A model generated the notes under the pieces. That model did not search any database. It saw nothing but the letters and a program-made list of their open reading frames with translations, and had not been told where the DNA came from. Shown in pieces: positions 2,562 to 27,273 of a DNA stretch of 32,010 bases (position 1 is the stretch's first letter; each line of letters begins with the position of its first letter). The stretch covers positions 1 to 32,010 of the forward strand of contig JAZSAR010000216.1 of assembly GCA_045601965.1 (NCBI GenBank). Reading direction: 5' to 3'. The stretch is from Clostridia bacterium (GTDB lineage: Bacteria; Bacillota; Clostridia; CAKSNL01; HGM11501). A program made the position numbers and the translations under genes.

Positions 2562-2593
2562 AAAAAGTCCCCGAGTTTCCTCGGGGACTTTTT
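2562..2593 (-). terminator. rho-independent terminator of the giant minus-strand gene (palindromic, could act in both directions)
   Basis: An 8-bp GC-rich stem, GTCCCCGA (2567..2574) with TCGGGGAC (2581..2588), is flanked by A and T runs. It sits immediately after the TAA at 2596..2598. Confidence 0.75.
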
Positions 2594-2595: not shown

Positions 2596-5500
2596 TTATT
2601 TGAGATTCAAGAGTCTCTGAAGCATTGTAACTGCTTCTGCCTTTGTAGCGTTAGCCTTGGGACCGAATGTACCATCGGGATAACCGTTGATAATTCCCTT
2701 GTCAGCTGCCCAGTTAACCTGGTAGTTTGCATATGTTGCAATTTCTGCCTGGTCAGCAAAGCCTGCTTCCTTGGTAATTGTCCAATCTTGACCCATAAGT
2801 GTTGCATAACGGTAAATCATTGTAGCCATCTGCTCACGTGTGATGTTCTCATAAGGAGCAAAGGTGGTTTCTGATGTACCCTGTGTGATTCCGCTCTTAA
2901 CTGCCCAAGCTACTGCATTTGTGAACCAGTCGCCAACGTTAACGTCGGTGAAGTTGTGTGCACCGTCAGTAGTCTGACCGGACATTAAGTAGAGAATCTG
3001 ACAGAATTCAGCTCTTGTAATGCTCTTGTCGGGCTCAAACTTGCCGTCTGCTGTACCGTTTACAAGGTAAGCTACATACATTTCACCGATGGTCTTTTCA
3101 CCCCAGTGACCTGCGATGTCGGAAAGCTCGCTTGCGCTTCTTATTCTTCTGTAATAGGGATAAAGTGTTACGTTTTCAATTACACCGGTATTTGCATAAG
3201 GTACTGTAAATGCCTCGTCAAGATACCAGCCGATGAAGTCGTAGCCTTCCTTAGCTGCGGGATCTGCAACTACTGTGCCGGTTGCAGCCTTATGAGTGCC
3301 GATACCAACCAATGTGATTGTGTGCTGGTTAACATTTGTACCTGTTCCAACGCCGCCACCGATAAGACCTGTACCGCCGGAAGAAGAAGATCCACCGCCA
3401 CCGCCGCCGTAAGAAGGTCTCTTTGTGCCTTCGTCATCGTCGTCCTTTTCTTTACCTTCCCAAACAGCTGTGAATGTTACATCCTCTGCAGGCATTGTGT
3501 ACTTCTTACCTGCTGCGTAAATTTCTCCGTCAACAGAGCATCTCCAACCATCGAAGGTGCTGCCTGTAAGCTTAAGAGTATTATTAGCAAGAGTTACCTT
3601 TTCGCCTGCTGTATAAGAACCGCCTGCAGGAAGATTTCCTGTTGCACCGTTTACATCATCATATGTTACTGTGAATACGTCAACGCCTGCTGCAACTGCA
3701 AGGATTTCGATGTTGCCCTTAACGTTCTTAACAACGATTTCACCTGTAGCTGAATCGTAGGTGTAGTCCTGACCTTCCTTAAGTTCAGCACCGTCCATAA
3801 TAACGGTAATTTCTTCGGGAAGTGCTTCTCCCTCATTGGGAACAAGAGTGATTTCTGCGCTTTCACCGTAAGGTACCTTTGTTTCTTCGATTTCAGCTTC
3901 AATCTTCTTAAGGTCTGTTGTAATCTTAGCAGTACCTGCTTCGATTGCAGCAAATTCAACTGTTACTGTTGCATCGCCGAAGAGATCGTCGATTTCATAT
4001 TCCTGGGATGCAGAACCTGTGTAGGTAATGTCACCTGTAAGGAGATTTTCTGTTATAATCTTTTCGGTGAATACGATTTCGCCGATTGTGCAATGGCTCT
4101 TTGTTGCGCTTGCGAAGGTTGAGTAAATTTCAAACTTGATACCGTCGATATAGCCTACATCTGCAAGAGCTATCATATCGGTTATATCATTCTGATTTGT
4201 GTTGCCTTCTGCAAGAAGTACATCGTAGTTTGCGCCACCGTCTGTTGTACCCCAAACCTTATACTGCTTAACCTTCTGACCTGCATTGTAAGCTGAGCCG
4301 TCAGAGTTAAGTCTTCTTGTATGAGTCATTTCGGAAATCATCATAGGCTCATCGAATACGGCTGTAATCCAGTAAGGACCGTCGGAAAGCAGATGAGTGG
4401 GGTTGGGAGAACCGGTTGTCTTTGTTTCGTATTCGGAATGCCAATAGGTTTTGTCATTTCCGTCAAATGCTTTGGTTACGGGTTCCATTGCATTGGTTGC
4501 ATCGAATTCCCAATCCTTCTTGTCGGTAACGCGAACATACTTAACGTCATCTTCGCCCTTACCTTCAAGTGTCCAGCCAGCGGGCTCATAGCCTGCTGCG
4601 CCTTCAGCTACGAATACAAGGTTTTCGTGTCTTCCTACCATGGAGCCTGATGCAACTTCTTCTTCAACCTCTTCACCTGTTGCCATATCAGTGTATCTTA
4701 CAACAGCCTTGAGTGTTCCGTTTTCGCCTGCAGAATAGTTTACTTCATATTCTTCAGCTTCAGCAATTGTTACGGGAACGAGTATGTCCTTACCTACGGC
4801 AAAGCCTACGGAAAGAACTATTTCGTCACCTACATTGTAACCGCCGTCGATGAAGAAGTACTTGGAAATTGTGAAGGATTCTTCGTCGCAGAAGTAGTAA
4901 GCGGAATTTACGGGTACTAAAACGTCTTCTCCGTCTTCTTCTGTTACGATAGAGATTGTGCCGAGTGTGATGGAGTCATTCCATTCAACATTGAATGTAA
5001 GGTCTTCAAGTGTTGCCAGGCTGTATGTTGCTGCGCCGGGCTTGATGTCTGCTGCCTTAAGGTCTGCATATGCGCTGGAAGGCTCATAGAGACAGATTTC
5101 TTCAAGACCTATGGGCTGCCATGCACCGTTCTTGGTGGGATATACTCTTACATATCTTGCACTTACATTTGTGGGAACGCCGTCAACGATGAACTTCATA
5201 TCATCGAATGCGTTTCTGTTGTAGTTAAGGCTGTCAAGGTTTCCTGCACCGAAGGTCTGGATATCGGACTTAACCCAGTTAATACCGTCGTTGGAAACTG
5301 CCATATAACCTTCCTTGATGGTTGTGAAGTACTGTCTTACACCGCCGTCAGCCCAGATTCTGTGGTAGAGTCTTACACCGGAGAACTCGTGAGGAATCTT
5401 ATAGTCAACCTCGAAGTAACCGGGAGCATCGTTCCAGATTGCACTTGTGCCGCTGGGGCTGTAAATCATAAATGTATCGTCGTGCTTTAATGCTGTATGA

Positions 5501-8500
5501 GCCCAGTCGCTGTTGGTAAGTGCTGATCCGTCAGACTTGGTTGTTACCTTTCTGTTGGTGATTGTAGCGATATTACCGCTTGCAACACCGGAAACGATTC
5601 TTGCTTCGTGATCGAAGTGGTAAGGTGTTACTTCCTGGGGGAACATCTTCTTGGAGAAGTCCATATACTTAACAGTAACGGATCCAACCTTACCTGTGGA
5701 GGTTTCGATTGCAAGAACTACATCGCCTTCAGTTGTAATTGTATTAAGAGTAGCTGCCTTAATTACGATTGTATCTGTTTCAGCATCATACTCATACTGA
5801 GAAGCTGTAAGGGTTGTAGTGCCAAGAACAACCTTGGAGATTGTTGTATCACCGATATCCTCGATGGAAATTTCGATTTCCTCATCTGTTGCATTAATGT
5901 CCTTCTTGAATACTGTCTCGCCTGTTACAGCAAGAGTGGGCTTTAAGAAGTGAATTGTATCAGCAGTTGTATGAGTAATGTCTGCCATCTTGATTCTGAT
6001 ATAACGGCTGTTTGCATTTTCTGTAAACTTCATTGTGTAAGCACCGGGTGTGCCGGATGCCTTACCTGTGTAAAGAACAGTCCATGTTGCATAGTCGTCA
6101 GAACCGGATATTGTTACGTTACCCCAGTCAGCGCTGTTTGCACGGGATACATAACGGATACCGCCAACTTCTGTTATAGCAGTTCCCATATCGATGTCGA
6201 TATAGTGAACACCTGTGCCGGAAGGAGCGTCACCTAAACCATTTACAAATGTGGAGTGCCAGTTCTGTACATCCTTCTTGTTTACGGCTGCCTTGAAGAA
6301 TGTATTTGCCGCATGCTGGTTACCTGAATCCATACGTACAGCCCATTCGGGGTTTACTGCAACTTCGTCTGCAAGGAAGGTTGTTGTAACCTCGCCGTTT
6401 GTCTTTATCCAGTCGGAGAAAATGTTAACTGTATAAATCTTTTCAGAATCGTCCTCGAAGGTTACCTTAACTTTAAGTGCATACGAACCTTCAGCAGGAA
6501 GTTTTTCATAAGCAATCTTGTTGATTGCACGTCTGAATGCTGTTCTATTCATTACGATAGATGTTCCTGATGCTGTAAATTCAACAGATGAACCGTCAAC
6601 AATGGATACATCCTTTACATCAAGACCTGAACCGTTGTAAAGAGATACTTCGTAAGTACCATCAGCGCTGCTTGCCTTTGCAAGGTAATAATCAGACTGA
6701 GAAAGGTCTTTTACGATAATCTTTGCTTCTACAACTTCGCCGGAAGAGAAGGATACACTTGCAGTGTATTCGCCGATTGCAAGAGTGCCTAAGAAGTCAG
6801 CCTTAAAGGTGATTCCCTTTACGCCGTCAAGAACATAGTCTGTTCCTGCGGTAAGCTCTTCGCCTTCAACCTTAACGGATGTAATTTCATATACGTTGTC
6901 GGAATTGAACTTTCTTACAGCATCTTCAATGTCTTCAGAAAGGTCAACGTTGATGTCGCCGCCAACAATTCTTGTGGAAGCATCAAGGAATACGATTTCG
7001 TGAGTGAACATAAAGCTGTGTGAATTCATATTCTGATAACTGTCAACGTCAACTCTTGCATAACGGTAGTTTGCATTGTCCTGAAGGTCAACCTGTGCTG
7101 TCTTTGAGTTGTTGCCGGAAATGCTTCCGAGCTTAGTCCATGTAACAAGGTCATTTGAACCGTAGAGGCTTACATCTACCATATTATAGTTCTTATCTGT
7201 GATGCGTACGCCGGCAAACTTTGTTGCCTTGCCGAAGTCAACCCATGTTGAGTAGGGACCCATTGCACGGGCAAAGTGCTGTTCGCCCTTTTCTGCACCT
7301 GTTTCATCATAATATGTTGATGTCCAGGACTGGGAGTTTGTAGCATCGCCGTAGTTACCGTTGAACCAGTTTGCAGCTGCATGAGCAAGGGATGCACCGC
7401 CGTTTACTGTTACCTGCCAGTCTGTGGGTGTGATTCCGTCAGCATCTGCTGCTGCAAGAGCACCGTTTACTGCTTTCCAGGTATAGTTTGCATTAAGAAC
7501 GATTTCCTTGGTTGTGCCGTCGGAAAGAGATACTTCAACAACGTGCTTTCCGGGGCCGTTATTTGTGATTTCACGAACGAAGAAGCCGTTGAAGGTGTTT
7601 TCTGTTACTTCGTCACCTACTGCGATGCCGAGAGTAGCATTTGCTCTTCTGAACTTCATGTAGTTGCCGCCGTTTTCGTGGCTTGTGATACTGTTCTGAG
7701 TGGATGAGTAGAGCCACTTTCTGTGCTCTTCGCTCTTATAGTAGTTACCGCCGAGGGTAAGTGTGATTGTGCCGTCACCGTTTGTTACAGCCTTCCACTC
7801 GTCAGCAGTGTTTGTTACAGCCTCGCCGTTGTACTTTAAGCCTGTAACAGTTACATCGTTAGCCGCTGTGTAAAGCTTGTATTCAAGTGTTGCATAACCA
7901 AGCTTACCGCTTGCAGAATCGGTAGGATCAATGCTTCTTACAAGACCTGCTAAAGCAGCTTCTGCCTTTTCAAGGTCTGCAATATTGATTGTTGCCTTAT
8001 CTGTATCAGAAAGAGATTCGTAAATTTCACGAAGCTCTGCTACTGCTTCAGCATCGTCAGCTGTTACTTCGGAAGCGGGAAGCTCTGCAATCATATCGTT
8101 GAGCTCAGCTCCTGCGAGTGCAAGCCAAGCAGCTTCTGCAGCCGTTAATACTTCATAGTTTTCTACTGCTGCCTGAACAGCGGGGCTTAATGCATCGTAT
8201 GCCTTACGAGCAGCATCGATTGCAGTTTTGCTTTCCATTATGATGGGTGTGCCGATTGCATTAATTAAGGTTTCAACAGCTTCAGCCTGAGCTGCAAGTG
8301 CTGTTGTGATTTCAGAAGGAGTCTTTGTTTCAACGCCTGCTGCGGGATTAAGAAGTCTTACTTCTTCAAGTGCCCAGTGAGCATCGAGACCTGTAGCTGT
8401 TGCATGAGATAATGTACACTCAACCTTAATATAACGTGCCTTTACGTTATATGCTGTTCCACCGAACTTAATTTCAGGAATTGCAGCTATAACAGCATTT

Positions 8501-11500
8501 GTTGCTGTAGATTTATCTGCAGAAATCCAGTTTTCTCCGTCTTCAGAAACGTAAATGTAACCTTCCTTGAAGTTCTGGTTTCCGTTTACTCTCTGATAGA
8601 GACGGATTCCTGCGAATTCATAAACCTTACCAAGGTCATACTTAAGATATACAGTATCGCCGTTTGCTCCGCCGATGCAGAAGTCGTGGTGAAGCTGTCT
8701 TGAAGAAACACCGCCGCCGGGAGCACCGAGGCTTATGAACTCATCACGGGTGATATAGTCACCGTCCATAATTATGCCGCCGCGGTCTGTTCCGTGCTTA
8801 ACTGTATCAGCCGCGCCTGCCTTAGTAACATAAGTTGCGGCAGTACCCATGGGATAGCTCATAGAAACTTCGTCATTGGGGAAGGTAACCTTGGGAGCAA
8901 CGGGCTTTAATACCTGAAGCTCTGTAATGTTTGTATAGGATGTATTTCCGTCAATGCCGGAAACAACGATAAACTTAATACCCTTGAATTTGTTGTTTCT
9001 TCCCTGTGCGAGATAAGCTTCCTTATGTTCTTCCTTGGTTGCGGATGTGAAGCCAAGCTTTGTATCGCCAAGAATGTCAACCCAGGTGGTTCCGTCGTAA
9101 GTACCCTGCATCTTTATAGTGTTTGCAGAAGCACCGCCCTGTACTGTTCTGGGGAATACTCTTACGCCGCCAACTTCCATTTCCTTATCAAAGATAATGG
9201 TAACGGACTTGTCGCCGTCAACTGCTGAATGCCAGCAGTTACCCATATCACCGTAAACTGTGCCGTCGTAAAGCTTTGTTACATTGTGAGTTGCACTGAA
9301 CTGGCTTCCTGCGGTCCATGTCCAGTCTGTGGGATTTTTGTAGTAGTCATCAAGTGAATCCAAAGCGCTCTTTGTCGCTTCCTTAAATTCAGCAACGGTA
9401 AGAGCCTCCTTGCCCGCAACGGGATCGATAAGTCTTAATTCGGATACGGACCAGTGCTGATTTGAATCTGCTCCGCCTGTCTGAACTGCTTCAAGCTTGA
9501 TATAACGTGCTTTGATGTTTTCGTTTACGCCCTTTGCAAGAGCCTTTGCATCGAAGAATAAGTCTGTGCCGGCACCTTCTGAAAGCTCAGCCTGTACCCA
9601 GTCAGTTCCGTTGTCGGATACATAGATATAACCCTTTGTAACGGACTGTGAGCTCCATACATTACCTTCAGCATTCTTTCTTGCGTATGCTCTGATACCG
9701 GAGAAGGTCTGCTCTGCACCAAGGTCAATGGTGAGCCATGCAGACTTTGAATCTGCAGGATAAATTGCATTGTTTATTTCAGCATGGTTGTTTGCTTCGG
9801 GAAGGATATTGTCTGTAAGAAGACCAAGGTTTGCCATAGTCTTTCCTGCTGTGGAGCCGCTCTCAATCTTCCATACGGGATAGGTTGTAAAGTCATCATC
9901 TTCGAAGGGTGATGTGTATTCTTCGGGCTTTAATATCTGAAGCTCAACAATGTTGGTGTGAGCGGTTGTGCTTCCGCTTAAGTTCTTTTCAACAACGTAG
10001 CGGATACCCTTGAACTTATTGTTAAGCTCGCCGCTTAAGAGGTTTGTGCCCTGCCATACACCGTCGTCTGTTGTAGCGTCATCATCTGTGCCGCCCTTAA
10101 GGCCTGTGCTTAAATCGTCAGCAGCAACGAACCAGTTTTCACCGTCATAGGTTGCTTCAATTCTTACAACGCCGGGGTTACCGCCGTACTGACGGACATT
10201 GTTTGTGGAGTCGTGACGACCGTAAACTCTGAATCCGCCAACATCAATTGCGGTTTTGAACATTACTGTAATTGTTCTCTGTGCTTCTGTAACGGGGCTT
10301 GTTGCAGAAGAATGCCAGTAGCTGCCGTTATCGTCCGCACCAATTGTTCCGTCAGCCTTAACGTTGTCTGTAACACCGTCAAATGCATCTGTAACGGGAG
10401 AACCTGCGTTCCATTCGGAGCCTGCTACCATAGAATCGAAGTACTTGGAAGGATCGTAATAATCAAGAGAATCTTCGGGAATGGTAGTCCCTTCAGCCTT
10501 TTCCTTGAAGCCTGTAACTGTTACTGTGTCAAGAGAGTCATCTTCCTTCACAAGTAAAAGCTCCTGAATAGACCAGTGTGCGCCGTTTGTCTTGCTTATT
10601 TCTACCTTTATATAACGCGCAGTTACGTTGTAAGCTGTTTCCTTTGCCTTTAAGGGAGATTCTGTATATACATCATTTGTAGATGCATACTTTGCCATTG
10701 CTGCAGAGTTATTGGGAACTCCGACAGATTCATCAAAGGTCTTACTTGTTGAAGCCCATGTATCAGCATGTTCTTCTGCTGCTGCCCAATCTGTTCCGTT
10801 ATCGGAAACGTAAATTGTTACGTTCTTCACGGACTGGTTGGGCTGTCCCCATCTGCCGAAGATTCGTACGCCGGAGAAGGTGTATGCCTTACCAAGGTCA
10901 ATTTCCATCCATGCCTTGTCGCCTTCTTCTTTAAATACATTGTCCATCTCAACGTGGGGATCGCTGTTTGCAGCACCTGTGTAGGGATTATAATAGCCTT
11001 CAGCTTCGTTTACGAACTGATAGATAGTCTTATCAAAGAGACCGCCGAGAGGTCCGCCTGTTACACCCTGAGTGGAGTTTCTTGCAACAACTGCGGGAGT
11101 TGTATCAAACCAGATAACATCATCAGCAAAAGCATAACCCTTCTTGGGCTTTAATACCTGAAGCTCACAGAAGCAGGTGTGTTTGTCTGTTGCATTGGAT
11201 ATGTTTTTATCAACCTGGAACTTAACAGCCTTGTATGCAACGCCTGTCTGAACTAAAAGTTCAACGCTCTGTTCTGTAGTGCTGTATGTGATTTCAGTGC
11301 TGGGAAGAATTTCTTTAAATGTTGTTCCGTCAGTAGATGCTAAAACAGTTACCATTTTGGGATTTCCGCCCTTGTTATCAAAACGGGGGAATATTCTGAA
11401 GCCGCCGATTTTCTGCGCTTCGGTAAATGTAACTGTAACAGTTCTGTTTTCTGCTGTTGCACCCGCTGTGGGACTTGTATGCCAGTATGCACCGTCATCA

Positions 11501-12099
11501 GTTGTAGCGGTTGTTGCCTGCCATATGCCGTCGAAAAGGTTACCAACGGGCTTCCAGTCACCGCCATAGCCGGAGGGGCTTGTTGCTGTAAACCAAGCAC
11601 TCTGGAGGTAATAATCTCTCTTGGCTTCTGCAAGAGCGGGATCATATTCTTCTGCAGTAATTGTATCAAGCTCTTCATCAGCATCAAGCATAATGATTTC
11701 TTCAATATCAAACTGACCGTGATTATTTACAGTTGTAACACTGAATTTGATATAACGAGCTTCAACGTTTACAGCTTCGCCTTCAAATTTAAATCCTAAA
11801 TCACCGTACTGAGGTGTAACCTCTGTTGTACGGGTTGTGGTTGAATTACCAAGCATGCCCCAGGTTTCGCCGTCTTCGGAAACCTGAATTTCAAGGGCTG
11901 TTGCCTTTCTTGCCTTCATACCTCTTGCCTTATGGTCGTCCATAAGTCTGATACCGGAGAAGGTTTTAACAGCGCCCAGGTCTATCTGAAGAGTCGTTGC
12001 ATTAGTACCCTGATCTGCAATCCATCCCATTGCACCTTCGGTAGCACCGCTGATTGTGGGGAATACGTCATAGTCAGCATTTGTGGATGCACCGGTCAT
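2596..12099 (-). CDS. giant SLH-anchored cell-surface protein, main portion (3,167 aa as called from the first ATG). It contains about 11 F5/8 type C (discoidin, CBM32-like) modules, Ig-like spacers and an Ala-rich helical region. The C-terminal part has Listeria-Bacteroides-type repeats, a Gly/Ser linker and three SLH domains.
   Basis: Uninterrupted 9.5 kb ORF. Recurrent discoidin hallmarks are present: (F/Y)DG...(Y/C/N)WHS, FSGIR/GGFR/GGVR, S.DG..W, ARYIK... and HW...E..L. The C-terminus shows three SLH-like repeats (DIAGHWGEKTIGEMY.., FTDVNVGDWFTNAVAWAVKSGI.., FADQAEIATYANYQVNWAADKGII..). There is no signal peptide at this N-terminus. The reading frame stays open upstream to the TGA at 12340. 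Confidence 0.9.
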   Translation of the reverse strand: MTGASTNADYDVFPTISGATEGAMGWIADQGTNATTLQIDLGAVKTFSGIRLMDDHKARGMKARKATALEIQVSEDGETWGMLGNSTTTRTTEVTPQYGDLGFKFEGEAVNVEARYIKFSVTTVNNHGQFDIEEIIMLDADEELDTITAEEYDPALAEAKRDYYLQSAWFTATSPSGYGGDWKPVGNLFDGIWQATTATTDDGAYWHTSPTAGATAENRTVTVTFTEAQKIGGFRIFPRFDNKGGNPKMVTVLASTDGTTFKEILPSTEITYSTTEQSVELLVQTGVAYKAVKFQVDKNISNATDKHTCFCELQVLKPKKGYAFADDVIWFDTTPAVVARNSTQGVTGGPLGGLFDKTIYQFVNEAEGYYNPYTGAANSDPHVEMDNVFKEEGDKAWMEIDLGKAYTFSGVRIFGRWGQPNQSVKNVTIYVSDNGTDWAAAEEHADTWASTSKTFDESVGVPNNSAAMAKYASTNDVYTESPLKAKETAYNVTARYIKVEISKTNGAHWSIQELLLVKEDDSLDTVTVTGFKEKAEGTTIPEDSLDYYDPSKYFDSMVAGSEWNAGSPVTDAFDGVTDNVKADGTIGADDNGSYWHSSATSPVTEAQRTITVMFKTAIDVGGFRVYGRHDSTNNVRQYGGNPGVVRIEATYDGENWFVAADDLSTGLKGGTDDDATTDDGVWQGTNLLSGELNNKFKGIRYVVEKNLSGSTTAHTNIVELQILKPEEYTSPFEDDDFTTYPVWKIESGSTAGKTMANLGLLTDNILPEANNHAEINNAIYPADSKSAWLTIDLGAEQTFSGIRAYARKNAEGNVWSSQSVTKGYIYVSDNGTDWVQAELSEGAGTDLFFDAKALAKGVNENIKARYIKLEAVQTGGADSNQHWSVSELRLIDPVAGKEALTVAEFKEATKSALDSLDDYYKNPTDWTWTAGSQFSATHNVTKLYDGTVYGDMGNCWHSAVDGDKSVTIIFDKEMEVGGVRVFPRTVQGGASANTIKMQGTYDGTTWVDILGDTKLGFTSATKEEHKEAYLAQGRNNKFKGIKFIVVSGIDGNTSYTNITELQVLKPVAPKVTFPNDEVSMSYPMGTAATYVTKAGAADTVKHGTDRGGIIMDGDYITRDEFISLGAPGGGVSSRQLHHDFCIGGANGDTVYLKYDLGKVYEFAGIRLYQRVNGNQNFKEGYIYVSEDGENWISADKSTATNAVIAAIPEIKFGGTAYNVKARYIKVECTLSHATATGLDAHWALEEVRLLNPAAGVETKTPSEITTALAAQAEAVETLINAIGTPIIMESKTAIDAARKAYDALSPAVQAAVENYEVLTAAEAAWLALAGAELNDMIAELPASEVTADDAEAVAELREIYESLSDTDKATINIADLEKAEAALAGLVRSIDPTDSASGKLGYATLEYKLYTAANDVTVTGLKYNGEAVTNTADEWKAVTNGDGTITLTLGGNYYKSEEHRKWLYSSTQNSITSHENGGNYMKFRRANATLGIAVGDEVTENTFNGFFVREITNNGPGKHVVEVSLSDGTTKEIVLNANYTWKAVNGALAAADADGITPTDWQVTVNGGASLAHAAANWFNGNYGDATNSQSWTSTYYDETGAEKGEQHFARAMGPYSTWVDFGKATKFAGVRITDKNYNMVDVSLYGSNDLVTWTKLGSISGNNSKTAQVDLQDNANYRYARVDVDSYQNMNSHSFMFTHEIVFLDASTRIVGGDINVDLSEDIEDAVRKFNSDNVYEITSVKVEGEELTAGTDYVLDGVKGITFKADFLGTLAIGEYTASVSFSSGEVVEAKIIVKDLSQSDYYLAKASSADGTYEVSLYNGSGLDVKDVSIVDGSSVEFTASGTSIVMNRTAFRRAINKIAYEKLPAEGSYALKVKVTFEDDSEKIYTVNIFSDWIKTNGEVTTTFLADEVAVNPEWAVRMDSGNQHAANTFFKAAVNKKDVQNWHSTFVNGLGDAPSGTGVHYIDIDMGTAITEVGGIRYVSRANSADWGNVTISGSDDYATWTVLYTGKASGTPGAYTMKFTENANSRYIRIKMADITHTTADTIHFLKPTLAVTGETVFKKDINATDEEIEISIEDIGDTTISKVVLGTTTLTASQYEYDAETDTIVIKAATLNTITTEGDVVLAIETSTGKVGSVTVKYMDFSKKMFPQEVTPYHFDHEARIVSGVASGNIATITNRKVTTKSDGSALTNSDWAHTALKHDDTFMIYSPSGTSAIWNDAPGYFEVDYKIPHEFSGVRLYHRIWADGGVRQYFTTIKEGYMAVSNDGINWVKSDIQTFGAGNLDSLNYNRNAFDDMKFIVDGVPTNVSARYVRVYPTKNGAWQPIGLEEICLYEPSSAYADLKAADIKPGAATYSLATLEDLTFNVEWNDSITLGTISIVTEEDGEDVLVPVNSAYYFCDEESFTISKYFFIDGGYNVGDEIVLSVGFAVGKDILVPVTIAEAEEYEVNYSAGENGTLKAVVRYTDMATGEEVEEEVASGSMVGRHENLVFVAEGAAGYEPAGWTLEGKGEDDVKYVRVTDKKDWEFDATNAMEPVTKAFDGNDKTYWHSEYETKTTGSPNPTHLLSDGPYWITAVFDEPMMISEMTHTRRLNSDGSAYNAGQKVKQYKVWGTTDGGANYDVLLAEGNTNQNDITDMIALADVGYIDGIKFEIYSTFASATKSHCTIGEIVFTEKIITENLLTGDITYTGSASQEYEIDDLFGDATVTVEFAAIEAGTAKITTDLKKIEAEIEETKVPYGESAEITLVPNEGEALPEEITVIMDGAELKEGQDYTYDSATGEIVVKNVKGNIEILAVAAGVDVFTVTYDDVNGATGNLPAGGSYTAGEKVTLANNTLKLTGSTFDGWRCSVDGEIYAAGKKYTMPAEDVTFTAVWEGKEKDDDDEGTKRPSYGGGGGGSSSSGGTGLIGGGVGTGTNVNQHTITLVGIGTHKAATGTVVADPAAKEGYDFIGWYLDEAFTVPYANTGVIENVTLYPYYRRIRSASELSDIAGHWGEKTIGEMYVAYLVNGTADGKFEPDKSITRAEFCQILYLMSGQTTDGAHNFTDVNVGDWFTNAVAWAVKSGITQGTSETTFAPYENITREQMATMIYRYATLMGQDWTITKEAGFADQAEIATYANYQVNWAADKGIINGYPDGTFGPKANATKAEAVTMLQRLLNLK
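2599..3132 (-). other. region encoding three tandem SLH (S-layer homology) domains, the C-terminal wall anchor of the giant protein
   Basis: The last ~178 aa contain three repeats of the SLH pattern: an aromatic/W-containing helix followed by G...G.....F.P...(I/A)TR(A/E)(E/Q). Confidence 0.8.
8340..11700 (-). repeat. about three diverged ~1.1 kb super-repeats inside the giant gene, each encoding a B-type plus an A-type discoidin module
   Basis: The A-type module ends recur at roughly 1.1 kb spacing: (H)GQFDIEEIIML near 11690, HWSIQELLLV near 10560, HWSVSELRLI near 9440 and HWALEEVRLL near 8365. The B-type ends (ELQVLKP, ELQILKP, ELQVLKP) fall in between. Confidence 0.6.
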
Positions 12100-12339
12100 T
12101 AAGCCTTCGGTATAAAGTCCGTTATAGGTGGACGCAATATTACCCTGAAGGCCACCTGATACCTTTGTAACAGCAGCACCTTCAAGCTCAGTAAGATATG
12201 TAACACCGTCATTTTCTGCGGGAATGAGAGCCTTTGCTGTTACGCCTTCTACATTTGTTACAGCAAAGTCCTCGGATGTGAGGGTGTCGTTTGCATCGTT
12301 TTCGTCAAGAAGAACGATTTCTTCAATTTCCCATTCGCC

Positions 12340-12993
12340 TCAGTTGTTAACTGCGGTTACGTTAAACTTAAAGTAACGTGCTTCTACGTTTACAGCTGCA
12401 GAGCTTTTCTTGAATACAAAGTCTCTGTATTTAGTTGTAAAGTCTTCATTTGTTGCATTGTCAAGGGCATACCAAAGCACACCGTCAGCGGATACTGACA
12501 GCGAAACGGTCTTTGCCTTTCTTGCGCTGTAATGTCTTGCTCTTGAAGAGTCATAAAGACGGATACCGGAGATAGTCTTCGCTGCGCCCATATCAACGGT
12601 AACTGTTGTCTTACCCGGCTGACCCATAAAGCCTGTGGGTGTTCCGTTGGACTCATAAAGTCCCTGGTCAGCATCACTTACGGTATACTTACCGTCGATA
12701 GTCTTTGCGATGTCGCCTTCTTTAGAGCCTGTGCTTACCTGGCTTACGCTTGCGCCGGTAAACTCGGTGAAGTATGTAACACCGTCACCTTCAGCAGCTT
12801 CAAATGAAGCCACGTCGGAGTTAGCCAAAAGCTCAACTTCCTCCTCCCCGTAAATTTCAACTAATTCGTCCTCGGAAACTTCCTCAATTGCAGGAATTTC
12901 CAGCACCTCTTCTGCGAAAGAGGTGATTGCTGCCGCAGGTGCCAATGTCATAATCATGCACAATGCGAGCAGTACAGATAAGATTTTTCTCAT
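12340..12993 (-). CDS. N-terminal fragment of the giant surface protein: signal peptide plus one discoidin module truncated in its last strand (217 aa)
   Basis: Strong RBS AGGGAGGAAA upstream of the ATG at 12991..12993. Signal peptide MRKILSVLLALCMIMTLAPAAAITSFA-EE. The module carries TISGIRLYD...SADGVLW...EARYFKFNVTAVNN and then TGA. It is in the same frame as 2596..12099. Confidence 0.85.
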   Translation of the reverse strand: MRKILSVLLALCMIMTLAPAAAITSFAEEVLEIPAIEEVSEDELVEIYGEEEVELLANSDVASFEAAEGDGVTYFTEFTGASVSQVSTGSKEGDIAKTIDGKYTVSDADQGLYESNGTPTGFMGQPGKTTVTVDMGAAKTISGIRLYDSSRARHYSARKAKTVSLSVSADGVLWYALDNATNEDFTTKYRDFVFKKSSAAVNVEARYFKFNVTAVNN

Positions 12994-13107
12994 GATGTTT
13001 CCTCCCTTTGCTTCTTATCATATTGATAGTATTTTTTTGCACGATTTCAAGATGCGGAGACTCGTCAGCCGACAATCCACGCATTATGATATCATACTGT
13101 ATCATAT

Positions 13108-13137
13108 ATAATACATCAAAATGCCCCCCTATGTCAA
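13108..13137 (-). promoter_or_regulatory. sigma-A-type promoter of the giant gene
   Basis: On the minus strand: TTGACA (13132..13137), an 18-nt spacer, then TATTAT (13108..13113). This gives a ~110-nt leader before the ATG at 12993. Confidence 0.5.
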
Positions 13138-13288
13138 CAAAAAAAAACTTTTTCGAAACATTTTTTTTACTTAATTGTAAAGAAACTTTTTCTTTTAGAC
13201 AATTCTCACAAATTTTGCCCTGTTTCAATGTGCATTTTCACAACAAAACACTTCTTCGTATTCCTGTTTCACTGCATTTTCTTTACAA

Positions 13289-13317
13289 TTGACTTATTTT
13301 TCTTTTGCTGATATAAT
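13289..13317 (+). promoter_or_regulatory. sigma-A-type promoter of the GH3 gene
   Basis: TTGACT (13289..13294), a 17-nt spacer, then TATAAT (13312..13317). RBS GAAAGGAGG precedes the ATG at 13344. Confidence 0.6.
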
Positions 13318-13343
13318 AACCTTACAGAAAGGAGGCTCTTTTT

Positions 13344-14495
13344 ATGAAAAAGACCTTTTTATTCATTCTTATGTTCTGCCTTCTTTTACCGGGCTGCATA
13401 GCAGAAAAAAACAATGACGTATATACAAAGGAAGAAAAAATTCCGCCTCCGCCCGCCAAAGAGGACCTTTTGCTTTCAGAAATGACACTCGATGAGAAAA
13501 TATATCAGATGATGTTTACTACTCCCGAAGCCGTAACAGGAGTGGGGCAGGTGGTTGCTGCAGGAGAAGCTACAAAGACAGCACTATCAGAGCACCCTGT
13601 AGGAGGACTTGTTTATTTTTCACAGAATTTTGAAAATCCCTCTCAAACAAAGGAAATGATCGAAAACACTCAGAGCTTTTCCGAAATTCCGCTGTTCATC
13701 AGCGTAGACGAAGAAGGCGGTATAGTTTCCCGCCTTGGCAGCAACAGTGCTATGGGAATAAAAAAACAGCCCCCAATGGCTGAAATCGGAAAATCCGGAA
13801 TTACAGAAAAAGCCTACACCGTCGGAAAAGAGCTCTCCGAAGCTCTTATCCCCCTTGGATTTAATATGGATTTTGCTCCCGTAGCAGATGTTCTTATAAA
13901 CAAAAACAATTCAGAAATCGGGAACCGCAGTTTCGGAAGCGATGCCTCTTTGGTTGCCGGTATGGTAGAAAAAACGGTTGCAGGTATGGAAGAGAACGGA
14001 CTTTCCGCCACACTCAAGCACTTCCCCGGTCACGGAAGCACCTATAACAACTCCCACAATGGAAGAAGTGAAAGCGAAAGAACCCTTGATGAATTAAGGC
14101 AAGAGGAATTTCTCCCCTTCAAGGCAGGAATTTCTGCCGGCGTGGATTTCATCATGGTTTCCCATATGACTTTAGTCAATGCTACCGAAGAAAAGGCTCC
14201 CTCTTCTGTTTCACAAGAAGTTATCACAGATATGCTGAAAGGCGAGCTCGGTTATAAGGGCATTATTATCACGGATGCCTTTAACATGGGCGCAATCGTT
14301 AACGAATACAAAGCAGGCGAAGCCGAAGTAAAGGCAATAAAAGCCGGCGCCGATATGATTTTGATGCCGAGAGACTTAAAAATTGCCGTAAATGCCCTTA
14401 AAGCCGCTGTGGCAGCCGGAGAAATAACGGAGGAGCGTATAAACGAAAGTGTTTTAAAGATACTGAAGCTTAAATCAGAAAAAGGATTGATATGA
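13344..14495 (+). CDS. glycoside hydrolase family 3 beta-N-acetylhexosaminidase (NagZ/YbbD-like), probable lipoprotein
   Basis: Signal peptide with a lipobox-like LLLPG-C. GH3 N-terminal domain hallmarks are present: SVDEEGG.V.R, KHFPGHGST and the nucleophile region GIIITDAFNMGAI. Stop is TGA (14493..14495), followed directly by a terminator. Confidence 0.9.
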   Translation: MKKTFLFILMFCLLLPGCIAEKNNDVYTKEEKIPPPPAKEDLLLSEMTLDEKIYQMMFTTPEAVTGVGQVVAAGEATKTALSEHPVGGLVYFSQNFENPSQTKEMIENTQSFSEIPLFISVDEEGGIVSRLGSNSAMGIKKQPPMAEIGKSGITEKAYTVGKELSEALIPLGFNMDFAPVADVLINKNNSEIGNRSFGSDASLVAGMVEKTVAGMEENGLSATLKHFPGHGSTYNNSHNGRSESERTLDELRQEEFLPFKAGISAGVDFIMVSHMTLVNATEEKAPSSVSQEVITDMLKGELGYKGIIITDAFNMGAIVNEYKAGEAEVKAIKAGADMILMPRDLKIAVNALKAAVAAGEITEERINESVLKILKLKSEKGLI

Positions 14496-14530
14496 AAAAA
14501 GGATGCTTGCATATGCAAGCATCCTTTTTT
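14495..14530. terminator. bidirectional rho-independent terminator shared by the convergent genes
   Basis: A perfect 24-bp palindrome, GGATGCTTGCAT/ATGCAAGCATCC (14501..14524), is flanked by an A run and a T run. Confidence 0.8.
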
Positions 14531-17012
14531 ACTTCGTTATTGTAACTGTCTGTGCCTCTCCGTTCCAGGAAACGTTATAGCCCAAAATTTCCGATACGAA
14601 TCTTACGGGTATAAAGGTACGGTTTTCCGATATCACCGGGGGATTTAAGAGAGTATACATCATCTTTCCCTTAGGGTAGCGTGTATCAGACACCCACACG
14701 ATATTGTTCCATATCTGAAGCTCGATTGTCATAACCTCGGTTTTAAGGGTGATTTTCTCCTTTGCACCGTCCCAGGCGATTTCTGCGCCCATTTCCTCAA
14801 CCAATCCTCTTAAGGGGATTAATGTTGAGCCGTTTACGATGAAGGGCGCAACGTCCAAAACCTTTTCGCTTTCGGTCTTCTCCTTACCCTTTACAGCCTT
14901 TATGGTTTTATCGCCGATTTTAAGGGTATAGGTTTCGCTTGCTTCTTCCGTTCTTTCCTTTCGTGCCGTTCCCGACTCAAAGAAGGAAATGTCCGTTGCA
15001 GAAACTCTGCCTGCATTATATTCCACAATTTCGATGTCAAAATACTTAACCTCGATTTCCTCGTCAAACACAACTACCTTTTCAGAAATATCGTCAGCAA
15101 AGGTGACTTCCTTTTCAGAAAATTCAAGACCATCAACTGACCAGCGCAAGATTGCCTTGTACCATAAGCCGTGTTTATCCTCCGACCGTCTCGGAAGATA
15201 ATGGAATTCCTTAATCTTATATACCTCGCGGAACTCAACCTCGATGGTTACGGGGCGTGTGCCTGTGGTTTCCGTCTGCCATACGGTATCCGACCTTCCG
15301 TCAAAGGCTCTGTTTATAGTGTTATTGTTCCACACAGGCTCTGTGCAGTAGCCCGTCGTCTCCTCCGTCGGAATCTGATAGAGTCTGTGAAGCACCTCAT
15401 AGTCCTGATATGCGGAAAGTGCCACGGTTTCAAGGTCGTCCCTTCCCTTTACGGCACTAAACTCCGCAAAGCTTCCTATGTTACCGTTTCCTCCCTTTAT
15501 TATAAGGCGTATTCTTTTAGCCTCGATATTTCCCACAAGGCGGAAATTTCTTATTGCACCGAATGCCGCCGTCTGCGAAAAGGCGATGGACTCGTTTTCA
15601 AGTATAGTGTAAAATGCGCCGTCATCCGAGCCTGACGCCTGAAGGTCAAAAAGCTTTACGTCGCCGGAGTGGGAATCGGTTCTCGGCAAAATTACAAATT
15701 CCGAAATTTTTGTAAGCTCGGGAAGTGTGAAGTCAATGGTATAAGGCGGCTTCTGAAGATTTTTCGCCTTGCCGTCTTCTACCTCATAGTAGGAATGCCA
15801 GATGGTCTTCTGTTTTCCGTCAATTAAGTTTTTCGCAGGTGCACCCTTAAATTCCGAGTCCGCAGTAGCCTTCCAGCCTGCCTTCGGCACTTCGTTTTCA
15901 ACTGTGAAGTCGGAGGCGGGCTCTGCCGGTTTTTCCTCCTTTGGCTCGTCCTTTGCAGATTCGCCTTTTTCGCTTCCTTTAATAAACTCAAGCTCACCGC
16001 AGGTTGCATAGCCTGTTCCGTAGGAATCGGTTATTTCAATTTTTACGCCGAGAAGCTCCATATCGCCCCAGGAGAGTGTCTGTGCTGCGTGGCGCATAGC
16101 ATCTGACGAAAGCTTGTATTTAAATATTTCCTTATATTCTTCTCCGTCGGTTGTTCCGTAAACGGTCATCGCCCTGACTGTTCCCGATTCAGAGTCGCTT
16201 CGGGGTGTGTAGATAAGTCCCGACACGGTTAACGGGCTTACGAAGTTTACGGTGATATAGTGGGGCCACTTTTCAACATCCGTAAGCTTTCCGTCTACCA
16301 CACCGTAGCGGGTATGCCAGAAGGTAGAAGGATTTCCGTCAAATATTTTCTTTATTGTTCCACCAAGGTCGGAAGAAGTTTCAACCAGCCAACTTGAATC
16401 ATAGGTGATTTTTTCATATGGAGCTTCTTCTTCCTTTTTGCCGTCAGCGGTAATTGTACCGGGAGTTACAACGGCGTTTTCAGCCTTTGCCTCTCCCCCT
16501 GTTAAAAACTGAAGCTCACCGCAGGAGGCATAGCCCGAGCCGTAGGAATTGGTTACTTCAATTTTTATGGCGCTCATTTCCTTATTGCCCCAGGAAATGG
16601 TTTTGGAATCGAAACGGCCGGCATCGCCTGAAAGCTTATATTCCGCAATTTTTGTAAAGGTTTCCCCGTCGGTGGATGAGTATACATTCATCGCCCTTAC
16701 GGTTCCCGAATCAGAATCGCTTCGGGGGGTGTAGATAAGTCCCGACACGGTTAACGGGCTTATAAAGTTTACGGTTATGTAGTGAGGCCATTTTTCAACA
16801 TCCGTAAGCTTTCCGTCAACCACACCATAGCGGGTGTGCCAGAAGGTTGATGCATTACCGTCAAATATCTTATTTATTGTTCCGCCAATGTCGGAGGTGG
16901 TTTCAACAAGCCAGGAAGAATCATAGGGGATTTCTGTTTCCGCCGCAGAGACGGAAACGAAAAGGGATAAAGTCATCAATAAGCATAATGTAAGTGCAAA
17001 TATTTTTTTCAT
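14529..17012 (-). CDS. secreted protein with four F5/8 type C (discoidin, CBM32-like) modules and a C-terminal Cu-amine-oxidase-N-like domain (827 aa)
   Basis: RBS AAAGGAGGCGG and signal peptide MKKIFALTLCLLMTLSLFVSVSA-AE. The pattern FDG...T.WH(T/S).Y ... G..Y.PR.D ... S.DG..(F/Y) ... E(L/F).F occurs four times. The C-terminus (PFIVNGSTLIPLRGLVEEMGAEIAWDG...TFIPVRFVSEILGYNVSWNG) fits the Cu_amine_oxidN1-type stalk domain common in Firmicutes wall proteins. Confidence 0.9.
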   Translation of the reverse strand: MKKIFALTLCLLMTLSLFVSVSAAETEIPYDSSWLVETTSDIGGTINKIFDGNASTFWHTRYGVVDGKLTDVEKWPHYITVNFISPLTVSGLIYTPRSDSDSGTVRAMNVYSSTDGETFTKIAEYKLSGDAGRFDSKTISWGNKEMSAIKIEVTNSYGSGYASCGELQFLTGGEAKAENAVVTPGTITADGKKEEEAPYEKITYDSSWLVETSSDLGGTIKKIFDGNPSTFWHTRYGVVDGKLTDVEKWPHYITVNFVSPLTVSGLIYTPRSDSESGTVRAMTVYGTTDGEEYKEIFKYKLSSDAMRHAAQTLSWGDMELLGVKIEITDSYGTGYATCGELEFIKGSEKGESAKDEPKEEKPAEPASDFTVENEVPKAGWKATADSEFKGAPAKNLIDGKQKTIWHSYYEVEDGKAKNLQKPPYTIDFTLPELTKISEFVILPRTDSHSGDVKLFDLQASGSDDGAFYTILENESIAFSQTAAFGAIRNFRLVGNIEAKRIRLIIKGGNGNIGSFAEFSAVKGRDDLETVALSAYQDYEVLHRLYQIPTEETTGYCTEPVWNNNTINRAFDGRSDTVWQTETTGTRPVTIEVEFREVYKIKEFHYLPRRSEDKHGLWYKAILRWSVDGLEFSEKEVTFADDISEKVVVFDEEIEVKYFDIEIVEYNAGRVSATDISFFESGTARKERTEEASETYTLKIGDKTIKAVKGKEKTESEKVLDVAPFIVNGSTLIPLRGLVEEMGAEIAWDGAKEKITLKTEVMTIELQIWNNIVWVSDTRYPKGKMMYTLLNPPVISENRTFIPVRFVSEILGYNVSWNGEAQTVTITK
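15975..16925 (-). repeat. intragenic tandem duplication with a 522-bp (174-codon) period, covering discoidin modules 1 and 2 of the 827-aa protein
   Basis: For example, agataagtcccgacacggttaacgggctta at 16211 recurs at 16733. The protein copies are YDSSWLVETTSDIGGTINKIFDGNASTFWHTRYGVVDGKLTDVEKWPHYITVNF.. and YDSSWLVETSSDLGGTIKKIFDGNPSTFWHTRYGVVDGKLTDVEKWPHYITVNF.. Confidence 0.85.
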
Positions 17013-17025
17013 TTTGCCGCCTCCT

Positions 17026-19767
17026 TTAATTAATGTGTGAAATCACGGCGTTTACTGTGTCAAGGGGTGCGCTTCCTTTGGTGCAGAGGGTGTATACGCC
17101 GCCTCCGAGTGCTTTTACTTCGTAGCCGTAGCACTCTGAAATAAATGTAAGAGGAATGTAGATAATTCCGTCAACTGCCGTGATGGGAGCAGAAAGCTTG
17201 ACGGGCGCTCCGTCCGCCTTTGCATCAAGTGTGCCGATAGTGGTATATGTCCACTTATAGTTTACAACTTCTGTAAGTTCGTCGTTCATTTCAAAGTGGT
17301 AGGTACGAAGCACGTTGTAGAAGGAATTATAATCCGTCTTTGTTCTGCCGTAGCCCATAACCTCATTGAAGGTGTCCTCGGGGATATAGAGTGTGCCGTT
17401 TAATTCGATTGCACGGACATTTCTGTTTTTCTCATATACGGGCATTTTTCCGCCTGCAACTATCATTTCTTCCGCGCCCGCCTTAAGTATTGCGGTGTCG
17501 GAAAGTGTCGCGCGCTCGGATGCGGTAAGTGCGGTCTGTGCTATTTCGGTAAAGAGATAGTTAAAGCGACCGTAGGGTGCAACGGATCCGTCAGAATAGA
17601 AGTTCATAAAGTCATCCTTGCCTGAAACGGAATCCGTCCACTTTAATTCAAGGTCAACTGTTCCCGTTTCGCCGATTAAGCTTCGTGAAAGCTTAAGCAT
17701 CATACTGTTTCCTGCGATTTTATATTCGGCATCGCCGATTTTTCCCATTGCCCAGAATCTTTCCGCATTTTTGTAAACTATGCCCTTTTCGATTAAGAAG
17801 TCATAGCCTTCCCAGCCCGTGTTATACATTCTGTCGGTGTTTATATAAAGGTTTAAGAAATTGCTGTCGTGCTCCTTAATCTCCTCTTCGCAATTTACAA
17901 GGAAATAAAGATTTTCAGAGTCAAATGTAACTTTTGCGCTCTTTATGGCGTTGTTTACCGTTGTCTTATAAACGTGGGGCTCAAAGTCTGTTCCCGCCTT
18001 TGCATAGCCTATGCTGTTACGCTCATAGGACTGGTCTGCATTGAGGAACTCAGGGCCTACACCGTTCCACTGCGAAAGGTCGCCCGCAATATCAATGGTT
18101 TTCGCTCCGCTTGCCGTAGGTACGGGGCGTACACCTTTATACTTTCTGATAAAGTCAACCATCAGGTTGTAATAGTCGTCCTTTAATGCTCCTCTTGAAG
18201 GCTCAAAGTCACGGCTGTTTTCATCGTCGAAGGTATCAACAAAGGCGTTGGGATTTCCGTACCAGTCTTCAAAACGGATTGCGGTCTGCTCGTTCCATCC
18301 GTCGATGTAGATAAATTCGGGCTCTGCACTGAGGGCTAATGCTGCCTGCTCACGGAAGAAGTATGCCTTTCTTGCACCCTCTTTGGTGTAGTCCTCGCCG
18401 AATACCTTGGAGAAGCCTCTTCCCTTTGCATAGTCGTTGGATGCCGCACCTCCAAGTCCCATTGCCGCATTGGTAAGGGTATTTATGGAACAGCCCACAG
18501 CCATAAATTCAGGTCTTCCCGTCTCGTCGGGGTTACGGAGCTTCTGGGGGAAGTGTTCAAGCCAGAACCACTCGTTGGGTTTAACCTCGCTGTCTCTCGT
18601 TCCGCCGTAACGGAAGGTGAAAAAGTCGTGAATTTCGTCTACTAAGGCAAGCTGTGCCGTGTCCTTGGCATTTGCCTGTGCAACGGCATATTCCTTACGG
18701 GTATTTGCAAAAATAAGGGGCTTTCCGTCAAGGTAGTACCATATATCGGAATAGTCGTTTTCATAGAAACAGCTCATATAAATGGATGCAGGCTGTGTGA
18801 AGCTGTACTGATTGGGCATTACGATTGCGCCAAGCACGGAAATTTTAGGAACGTTGAGCCCCGTCGATTTCGCATCGCGGAAGGCTTCTGCCACAACCTT
18901 AAGAGAGCTTACAAAGTTATAGCCGTTATTTGTATAGTCAAAGAATATTACGTCAACGCCCGCATGGGAAAGCATTTCGGCGTGCTTTCTGTAAACCCAG
19001 TAGTCATAGGAATCATAAAAGCCAAGTGCCGGCTCTGACCAGTAATATATGCTGTTTAAGTCCCACGCCTTGTGGAAGTAGTCATATCTTGCTTCGGGAG
19101 AAGCTTTAATTACGTCCCCGATTACCGTCGCACGGGTTTTAGCAGTATCCGATGTAAACCAGTTCCAGTACATTATGCCCACATCACGTCCGTCGGTTTT
19201 AACGGCACCTGCTTCAGAATAGTCTGCCACCTTTCTTCCATAGGAATCCGTTGCCGCCCAGGTATCGGAATAAAGGTCAATGACAGCATCATCGGATACC
19301 TGAACGGATTTTGTATCACGCACATAATCTTCCTTTGAAAGAATGACCTTTTTAATATCGCTTCCGCCGCGGGATGCACCGTAGAGCGAAACGAAGTAAA
19401 GGTCGTGTTTTCCTTCCGTCGCTTTTACGGGTGCTTTGAAAAGGCCTTCTCTGTTTTCGTCCATTACAAGATAGCCTATTACATTGCCTGTGAGCGGATC
19501 GTCGGTTTTAATCATAAGAGTATCGCCGTTTGCCCCTCCGGTAACAACATTTTTCGCTTCGATTGCGATATGCTTTATCCCGGTAAGGTCCACATTCTTA
19601 AACCCGAAATAATCGTCCTTTTTTGAATACCGGAGAATTTCTCCGTTTATTGTTGCTCCCGACAAAATATCCGCATCCGCCGCATTAAGTGTAATTTCAC
19701 CCTCTGCAGATACAGGAATTGAAAAAATCATCAGGATTGCCAGAATAATTGCAAGTATTTTTTTCAA
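17026..19767 (-). CDS. secreted putative glycoside hydrolase (913 aa), function uncertain. It has an N-terminal CBM6/35-like module, a family-unassigned GH99/WbsX-like TIM-barrel-type core, a beta-sandwich and a C-terminal Cu-amine-oxidase-N-like domain.
   Basis: TTG start at 19765..19767 preceded by GAAAGGAAGGG. Signal peptide MKKILAIILAILMIFSIPVSA-EG. The CBM-like segment reads ..DYFGFKNVDLTG...GKHDLYFV... Core motifs are YYWSEPALGFYDSYDYWVYRKHAEMLSHAGVDVIFFDYTN and IYIDGWNEQT. The stop lies 13 nt before the next gene's ATG, indicating an operon. Confidence 0.85.
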   Translation of the reverse strand: MKKILAIILAILMIFSIPVSAEGEITLNAADADILSGATINGEILRYSKKDDYFGFKNVDLTGIKHIAIEAKNVVTGGANGDTLMIKTDDPLTGNVIGYLVMDENREGLFKAPVKATEGKHDLYFVSLYGASRGGSDIKKVILSKEDYVRDTKSVQVSDDAVIDLYSDTWAATDSYGRKVADYSEAGAVKTDGRDVGIMYWNWFTSDTAKTRATVIGDVIKASPEARYDYFHKAWDLNSIYYWSEPALGFYDSYDYWVYRKHAEMLSHAGVDVIFFDYTNNGYNFVSSLKVVAEAFRDAKSTGLNVPKISVLGAIVMPNQYSFTQPASIYMSCFYENDYSDIWYYLDGKPLIFANTRKEYAVAQANAKDTAQLALVDEIHDFFTFRYGGTRDSEVKPNEWFWLEHFPQKLRNPDETGRPEFMAVGCSINTLTNAAMGLGGAASNDYAKGRGFSKVFGEDYTKEGARKAYFFREQAALALSAEPEFIYIDGWNEQTAIRFEDWYGNPNAFVDTFDDENSRDFEPSRGALKDDYYNLMVDFIRKYKGVRPVPTASGAKTIDIAGDLSQWNGVGPEFLNADQSYERNSIGYAKAGTDFEPHVYKTTVNNAIKSAKVTFDSENLYFLVNCEEEIKEHDSNFLNLYINTDRMYNTGWEGYDFLIEKGIVYKNAERFWAMGKIGDAEYKIAGNSMMLKLSRSLIGETGTVDLELKWTDSVSGKDDFMNFYSDGSVAPYGRFNYLFTEIAQTALTASERATLSDTAILKAGAEEMIVAGGKMPVYEKNRNVRAIELNGTLYIPEDTFNEVMGYGRTKTDYNSFYNVLRTYHFEMNDELTEVVNYKWTYTTIGTLDAKADGAPVKLSAPITAVDGIIYIPLTFISECYGYEVKALGGGVYTLCTKGSAPLDTVNAVISHIN

Positions 19768-22136: not shown

Positions 22137-22172
22137 TAAAAAGATGTGAGCCGACGGCTCACATCTTTTTAT
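22137..22172. terminator. bidirectional rho-independent terminator between the topoisomerase gene and metH
   Basis: A 12-bp stem, AAGATGTGAGCC (22141..22152) with GGCTCACATCTT (22156..22167), is flanked by A and T runs. Confidence 0.8.
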
Positions 22173-27093: not shown

Positions 27094-27129
27094 ATAAGTT
27101 TCCTCCTATTATGCATTATGGTATAGTAT

Positions 27130-27160
27130 ATTATAGCACAACAAGTCCCTTTTTCACAAT
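27130..27160 (-). promoter_or_regulatory. candidate extended -10 promoter of the 25546..27093 gene
   Basis: On the minus strand: TTGTGA (27155..27160), a 19-nt spacer, then TGcTATAAT with the -10 hexamer at 27130..27135. Confidence 0.4.
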
Positions 27161-27231
27161 CTTTTTTTCTGTTTTTTCTTCTCTTTTCCCGCTTTTCGTC
27201 ATATTGCACAAACCAAAGCCTGCTATTTTGT

Positions 27232-27267
27232 GAAAAATTACACCCGCAACAGCTGTGCGGGTGTAAT
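27232..27267 (-). terminator. rho-independent terminator of the 27274..30006 gene
   Basis: A 12-bp stem, ATTACACCCGCA (27237..27248) with TGCGGGTGTAAT (27256..27267), is followed on the minus strand by TTTTT. Confidence 0.75.
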
Positions 27268-27273
27268 TCATAC

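Follow-up and report, generated by a model that had tools for sequence, protein, structure and literature searches.

The closest described counterparts of the protein considered here are the CBM32 enzymes of Clostridium perfringens (Mu toxin/NagH, NanJ, GH84C, GH89 and GH31; PDB 2w1u, 2v72, 2j1a, 4a41 and 4lks), in which multiple tandem modules are carried by a secreted protein of gut Clostridia. The window analysed in this study, a stretch of 32,010 nucleotides from a Clostridia bacterium, holds a giant gene with modules of this family: a structural model of a paralogous module from the window matches these C. perfringens domains in Foldseek (E ~1e-7), at a sequence identity to the solved CBM32s of only 12-24%. 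The two systems differ in that the C. perfringens modules belong to glycoside hydrolases, whereas the giant protein combines 12 modules with three SLH repeats and Pfam detects no catalytic domain in its 3,465 aa. From its domains the gene product is predicted to be an SLH-anchored, glycan-binding cell-surface protein of an uncultured gut Clostridia bacterium; as such it joins the surface proteins with CBM32 repeats and SLH anchors that gut Clostridia carry, a group in which it is unstudied but comes as no surprise.

The reading frame of this gene is interrupted by a single in-frame TGA, and three bodies of earlier work bear on how such a codon may be read. Near-cognate decoding of UGA by tRNA-Trp(CCA) is said to have been described by Engelberg-Kulka in 1981 and, in B. 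subtilis, by Lovett et al. in 1991 (references 61 and 62 of PMC11890864). In E. coli, TGA leaks more than the other stops, chiefly by being read as Trp; termination is weaker when a G comes next, and UGA read-through in a reporter library ranged from below 1% to several per cent (PMC11126739). The giant gene is alike in that its UGA is followed by G and the Trp expected from such decoding is the ancestral residue; it differs in that read-through was measured in E. coli and B. subtilis, whereas here it is suggested by analogy, and no stimulatory element accompanies the codon. Reassignment of UGA to Trp (translation table 4) occurs in Mycoplasmatales, some Patescibacteriota and endosymbionts (PMC13092985); these share with the giant gene a UGA at a Trp position, but TGA is a terminator throughout the clade studied here and the codon in question is the sole in-frame case. 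Finally, in-frame stops are widespread in bacterial genes and short-lived, on the time scale of population polymorphism, and a singleton nonsense substitution is a common, well-described event (PMC7918605). The young pseudogenes of Belinky et al. 2021 (PMC7918605) are lone nonsense substitutions in otherwise intact, conserved ORFs with few or no mismatches to the sense-codon alleles around the stop, and the giant gene resembles them in both respects; that survey, however, guarded against artefacts by relying on stops found in two or more species, whereas the present stop is a singleton on one contig.

Reading frame and domain architecture of the interrupted gene

Translation of the minus strand across the giant gene gives one frame of 3,466 codons, in which the stops are the terminal TAA and the TGA at codon 218 (Table 1). 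Two ORFs of this frame appear in the ORF list, 12340..12993 (217 aa) and 2596..12099 (3,167 aa). The initial annotation had stated that they share one frame and that neither a second stop nor an alternative start precedes the downstream ORF, and both statements held up on translation and inspection of the ORF list: ATG, GTG and TTG are absent in frame from the 240 nt between the TGA and the ATG at 12099. The reading-frame context at the stop is GTT AAC AAC TGA GGC GAA TGG, and the junction peptide with the stop read as Trp is FNVTAVNN-W-GEWEIEEIVLLDENDANDTLTSEDFAVTNVEGVTAK, in which the last strand of module 1, EWEIEEIVLL, is encoded at 12307..12336. The G-to-A change corresponds to CDS position 654; it is a substitution within a run of four Gs (TGGGGC to TGAGGC), and the gene length stays in frame. 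This is not the signature of a phase-variable contingency locus switched by repeat slippage, since the change is a substitution with no difference in homopolymer or tandem-repeat length.

Table 1. Coordinates of the giant gene, its signals and neighbouring features in the window
Feature	Position	Strand	Description
Ancestral gene	2596..12993	minus	3,465 sense codons + TAA; signal peptide, 12 CBM32/discoidin modules, 2 CBM_X2, Listeria-Bacteroides repeats, 3 SLH
Internal TGA, codon 218	12340..12342	minus	Third base G-to-A of ancestral TGG (Trp); plus strand C-to-T at 12340
Part predicted to be still translated and exported, 217 codons	12343..12993	minus	Signal peptide (12913..12993), then module 1 lacking the last beta-strand
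Inter-ORF segment, 80 sense codons	12100..12339	minus	Last strand of module 1, linker, start of module 2
Downstream ORF, 3,167 codons	2596..12099	minus	ATG = Met299; without Shine-Dalgarno sequence and signal peptide
Three C-terminal SLH cell-wall anchor repeats (residues 3288-3465)	2599..3132	minus	PF00395, 3 stretches, 111.9 bits
Shine-Dalgarno sequence GGGAGG	13001..13006	minus	7 nt 5' of the ATG at 12993; read from the sequence
Promoter-like site TTGACA, 18-nt spacer, TATTAT	13108..13137	minus	11/12 matches; consensus match only
Intrinsic-terminator-like hairpin and T-run	2562..2593	minus	Directly 3' of the giant gene's TAA
Window-specific block, aa 2001-2500	5494..6990	minus	Excess of window-specific changes, 131 N/44 S
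Window-specific block, aa 3001-3250	3244..3990	minus	Excess of window-specific changes, 27 N/14 S
GH3 (NagZ-like) gene	13344..14495		Single-domain; lies in 13197..14521
827-aa protein gene	14529..17012		Stop codon TAA
601-aa protein gene	30020..31825		C-terminal domain below Pfam cut-off
Hairpin terminator, GH3/827-aa gene pair	14496..14528		Bidirectional, shared by convergent genes
Hairpin terminator, topoisomerase/metH-like pair	22137..22168		Bidirectional, shared by convergent genes

The expression and export signals lie on the short side of the stop. The giant gene begins with a hydrophobic, signal-peptide-like stretch (Kyte-Doolittle 15-residue maximum 2.7), whose Sec features, judged from sequence and hydropathy only, are MRK, a hydrophobic core and then SFA/EE. 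No such hydrophobic stretch was found after the stop (Kyte-Doolittle maximum 1.1) or at the N-terminus of the ORF starting at 12099 (0.5), and no Shine-Dalgarno sequence precedes the ATG at 12099. The earlier proposal that the RBS and signal peptide drive a truncated 217-aa module only is supported by the upstream GGGAGG and the hydropathy value of 2.7; its corollary, that the remaining 3,247 codons, three SLH repeats included, are without an export signal, agrees with the lack of a start codon for 240 nt, of a Shine-Dalgarno sequence and of a hydrophobic N-terminus downstream. Met299, the residue encoded by this ATG, is Lys in most orthologs and Met in two loci of one lineage (L007 and L008), whose genes are intact, and is thus a polymorphism rather than a conserved start. 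Its interpretation as a compensatory new start was rejected on this ground and for want of a Shine-Dalgarno sequence and signal peptide.

The Pfam profile PF00754 (F5_F8_type_C) scores 32.6 bits against the 217-aa ORF (cut-off 28.2) and 302.8 bits, in 11 stretches, against the downstream part. Within the truncated product the match runs from residue 86 to 214 (profile positions 5-114 of 127); translating the stop as Trp lengthens it to residue 221 and profile position 121. The total of 12 discoidin-like modules in the giant protein comes from a local iterative profile search, and Pfam additionally finds two CBM_X2 domains and Listeria-Bacteroides repeats in the combined protein.

The motif around codon 218 recurs, as had been noted before, in paralogous modules: it reads NDNWGEWEIGEIAL in the protein encoded at 25546..27093 and NNHGQFDIEEIIML in module 2 of the giant gene itself. 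Residues 23-190 of the former protein, which carry the same NWGEWEI motif, were modelled with AlphaFold2 as a stand-in for module 1 (mean pLDDT 75.4, pTM 0.76), and the top Foldseek matches of this model are CBM32 domains (E 3.5e-8, probability 1.00); a PDB sequence search with module 1 gave chance-level matches only. The stop had originally been placed inside the last strand of the discoidin module. The paralog model corrects this, as the Trp equivalent to codon 218 sits in a turn (145-150) just before the last beta-strand, EWEIGEIAL (151-159), so that the one module of the 217-aa product is missing its terminal strand. In an alignment of 86 paralogous modules, 61 have a gap at the Trp column, and Trp is therefore not a universally required residue; the alignments indicate that it is conserved at codon 218 among the orthologs and in a few paralogs, not across all modules.

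Codon 218 in related loci and the age of the stop

A scan of species-representative genomes yielded three relatives, all "Clostridia bacterium" MAGs and one of them (L002) from goat colon, and six further loci were retrieved from ENA, Logan and NCBI assemblies with the neighbouring 827-aa protein as a handle. Together the nine loci represent six lineages of uncultured Clostridia MAGs (L001; L002/L004/L005; L003; L007/L008; L009; L010), and the aligned codon is TGG (Trp) in every one of them. The ancestral codon was thus TGG, as the initial annotation had predicted. Seven of the nine loci contain an unsplit gene of 2,934-3,494 aa, namely 3,480 aa in L002, L004 and L005, 3,070 aa in L003, 3,453 aa in L007, 2,934 aa in L009 and 3,494 aa in L010, with L002 and L003 read whole and the other five lengths taken from gene calls. 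The L001 and L008 contigs break off within the gene, and the part that they cover is open. Orthologs naturally split at the same place, with their own RBS and signal peptide on the downstream part, would have contradicted an interrupted gene, and none was found.

The 45 nt on either side of codon 218 are identical in L001 and L002, the two closest relatives, which makes the change one isolated G-to-A transition; moving away from the stop, the next differences from L001/L002 are met 76 nt upstream and 40/76 nt downstream. Nucleotide identity of the flanks to the relatives is ~95% or less, all relatives being other lineages. Scans of metagenome contigs for the site, with an exact 38-nt pattern carrying R at the variable base and with a protein pattern, gave no match. 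A protein search with the first 451 residues (stop as Trp) likewise found no match among 5.8 billion proteins. A contig collection records 92%-identical products of 3,480 aa that were unmatched in the same search; giant proteins and those cut off by contig ends seem to be absent from that protein set, and a negative there is accordingly uninformative for giant proteins.

The orthologs differ from one another by whole modules. The L003 ortholog (10001..19213) is without ~390 aa corresponding to alignment columns 449-836, and that of L009 (9185..17637) has a divergent first module with extra insertions; judging from these alignments, module number is evidently variable among orthologs of the giant gene.

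Substitutions were polarised with L002 and L003. Codon changes in the giant gene number 291 on the window branch, of which 198 are non-synonymous and 93 synonymous; the L002 branch has 223 (125 non-synonymous, 98 synonymous), and raw N/S is 2.13 versus 1.28. For the codons after the stop the counts are nearly the same, 196/92 on the window branch and 123/98 on the L002 branch (Fisher p = 0.005). A raised N/S of this kind could be taken as relaxed selection on an old pseudogene, and this reading was rejected because the excess is confined to two mosaic blocks (Table 1), whereas outside the mosaic blocks N/S is alike on the two branches (40/35 on the window branch, 67/69 on the L002 branch). The L002-specific changes pile up in a divergent block of their own, aa 1251-1500. 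Restriction of the excess to two blocks argues for recombination or module divergence rather than decay, and the pattern suggests recombination or module exchange between alleles. The giant gene would then be a mosaic, fast-evolving surface-protein gene, with no apparent general relaxation of constraint in the window lineage. Stops are created by 3.8% of the possible single-base changes in the giant gene, and about 11 would be expected among 291 unconstrained window-specific changes; one was observed, with no frameshift. With one stop against ~11 expected and the frame otherwise intact, the stop is either very young, as measured against the split from the closest relatives, or not real.

Explanations for the internal TGA

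We think it probable that the TGA is a genuine, very recent nonsense allele, fixed or in the majority in the sampled strain or population. A single G-to-A transition would have turned the conserved Trp-218 codon TGG of the first CBM32 module into TGA; G:C-to-A:T is the commonest spontaneous transition. Ribosomes loading at the strong RBS would terminate after 217 residues and yield an exported fragment lacking the last beta-strand, and any product initiated at the ATG at 12099 would have neither an RBS nor an export signal. The giant gene may in this way be off or strongly down-tuned, and 9.7 kb of untranslated mRNA would face polarity and decay. Residual full-length protein may still be made by basal near-cognate decoding of UGA by Trp-tRNA, which would restore the wild-type residue and which is favoured here by the combination of the leakiest stop, TGA, with a following G. 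Because read-through regenerates the wild-type protein, the allele may fall short of a complete null and act as a strong hypomorph; of all nonsense mutations, TGG-to-TGA is the likeliest to leave a leaky phenotype, given that the original residue is restored. The locus has the features of a nonsense-mutated gene: the orthologs have a sense codon one base away, they are continuous, and the downstream part has no independent expression or export.

A consensus or base-call error would look identical to a real nonsense allele, and an artefact of sequencing or assembly, in which the organism has TGG and an intact gene and the A is a consensus error or a low-coverage minority variant, is the principal competing explanation, possible although clearly the less probable of the two. 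The window is a complete contig of 32,010 bp and the relatives are all MAGs, two of them with contig names giving ~6x coverage; moreover the difference is confined to a single base within a brief stretch of Gs (TGGGGC), in a gene that is otherwise undamaged and with flanks that match the TGG-bearing relatives exactly. Against an error-prone assembly, the other genes on the 32-kb contig are all intact, with no frameshift or stop, and the window-specific changes in three neighbouring genes are overwhelmingly silent (13 N and 78 S, versus a random N/S of ~3.2), which indicates real divergence and not a high error rate. A priori, real strain-level differences would also be expected to outnumber consensus substitution errors greatly in a decent short-read assembly. 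Taken together, this indirect evidence leans towards a real allele.

A further reading accepts the TGA as real and regards it as maintained, that is, as a selected expression-tuning allele at which basal or enhanced Trp-tRNA read-through supplies a low level of functional adhesin. In its favour, read-through would insert exactly the ancestral residue and the frame is otherwise unbroken; in E. coli, a G after TGA makes for leaky termination (PMC11126739), and in the view of Belinky et al. many in-frame stops should not be counted as pseudogenes (PMC7918605). The TGA is, however, absent from all six related lineages, its flanks are identical to those of TGG alleles and show no co-evolved context, no structure lies downstream, and an intact frame is equally expected of a very young lesion; the untranslated mRNA tail would moreover be exposed to polarity and decay, as said above. 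We regard a maintained leaky stop as very unlikely. If true, it would lower the cost of the protein or its visibility to phage or host immunity while the gene is kept under selection. The more specific conjecture of a reversible one-step "dimmer" (TGG <-> TGA), in which a leaky TGA holds the adhesin at ~1% of normal and segregates under phage or host-immunity pressure, is a long shot.

A last reading is recoding, with TGA as Trp in a table 4-like code or as selenocysteine, or else a natural two-gene arrangement with its own downstream start. The stop does replace a Trp and an ATG does exist at 12099, which we take as coincidence only. TGA had been called a genuine stop in this genome, and this is confirmed by the GH3 gene of the window, which ends in TGA with a hairpin and T-run directly after it, and by the relatives, where TGA closes 9 of 24 called genes, all of them free of internal stops. 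The giant gene itself contains 62 TGG codons and one TGA, and a UGA=Trp code was rejected on these grounds. In the 827-aa gene the stop is TAA in the window and TGA in the L004, L007, L009 and L010 orthologs, which shows stop-codon turnover within the clade and, once more, that TGA terminates translation. Selenocysteine insertion was rejected: the 100 nt that follow the stop fold no more stably than shuffled sequence (z = +1.03), SECIS-like and other structures are absent, the window yields no Rfam match, and the ortholog residue is Trp, not Cys or Sec. Programmed stop-codon read-through was rejected as well, the stop being absent in relatives, the flanks equal to those of TGG alleles and no structure present; nothing points to programmed recoding. 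There is no tRNA gene within the window. With no split ortholog and with Met299 mostly Lys and devoid of an RBS and signal peptide, recoding and the two-gene arrangement are effectively refuted.

The options listed in the initial annotation, namely recent pseudogenisation or an OFF allele, a base-call or assembly error, and basal UGA read-through by tRNA-Trp, thus remain. The phenomenon is an ordinary recent knock-out mutation or a sequencing error, and involves no new mechanism.

Neighbourhood and meaning of the finding

The giant gene sits in a cluster with the genes of five further secreted proteins of 827, 913, 515, 910 and 601 aa (14529..19767 and 25546..31825). CBM32/discoidin repeats are found in three of them (827, 515 and 910 aa), and all five end in a Cu_amine_oxidN1-type domain instead of SLH, which in the 601-aa protein is below the Pfam cut-off. 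The cluster is interleaved with housekeeping genes, including those for a topoisomerase IV subunit A-like protein, a metH-like protein and MTHFR, and in two places a pair of convergent genes is served by one bidirectional hairpin terminator (Table 1).

A single-domain GH3 (NagZ-like) gene between the 827-aa and giant genes is specific to the window, with no trace in L001-L003 by tblastn. In the relatives that spacer holds a 94-aa GIY-YIG gene instead (L004 12969..13253, L005 4889..5173, L009 8128..8412, L010 11886..12170), and a GIY-YIG-type ORF is present in L002 too. GH3 in the window versus GIY-YIG in the relatives indicates gene replacement or insertion at this spot.

For annotation, the two ORFs should in either case be recorded as one interrupted gene and not as two genes, and if the TGA is an error, as one intact protein of 3,465 aa. 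The finding has little significance otherwise. A real stop would mean that the strain no longer makes, or makes far less of, one giant glycan-binding surface protein retained by its relatives, a strain-level phenotypic difference of a kind common for surface proteins.
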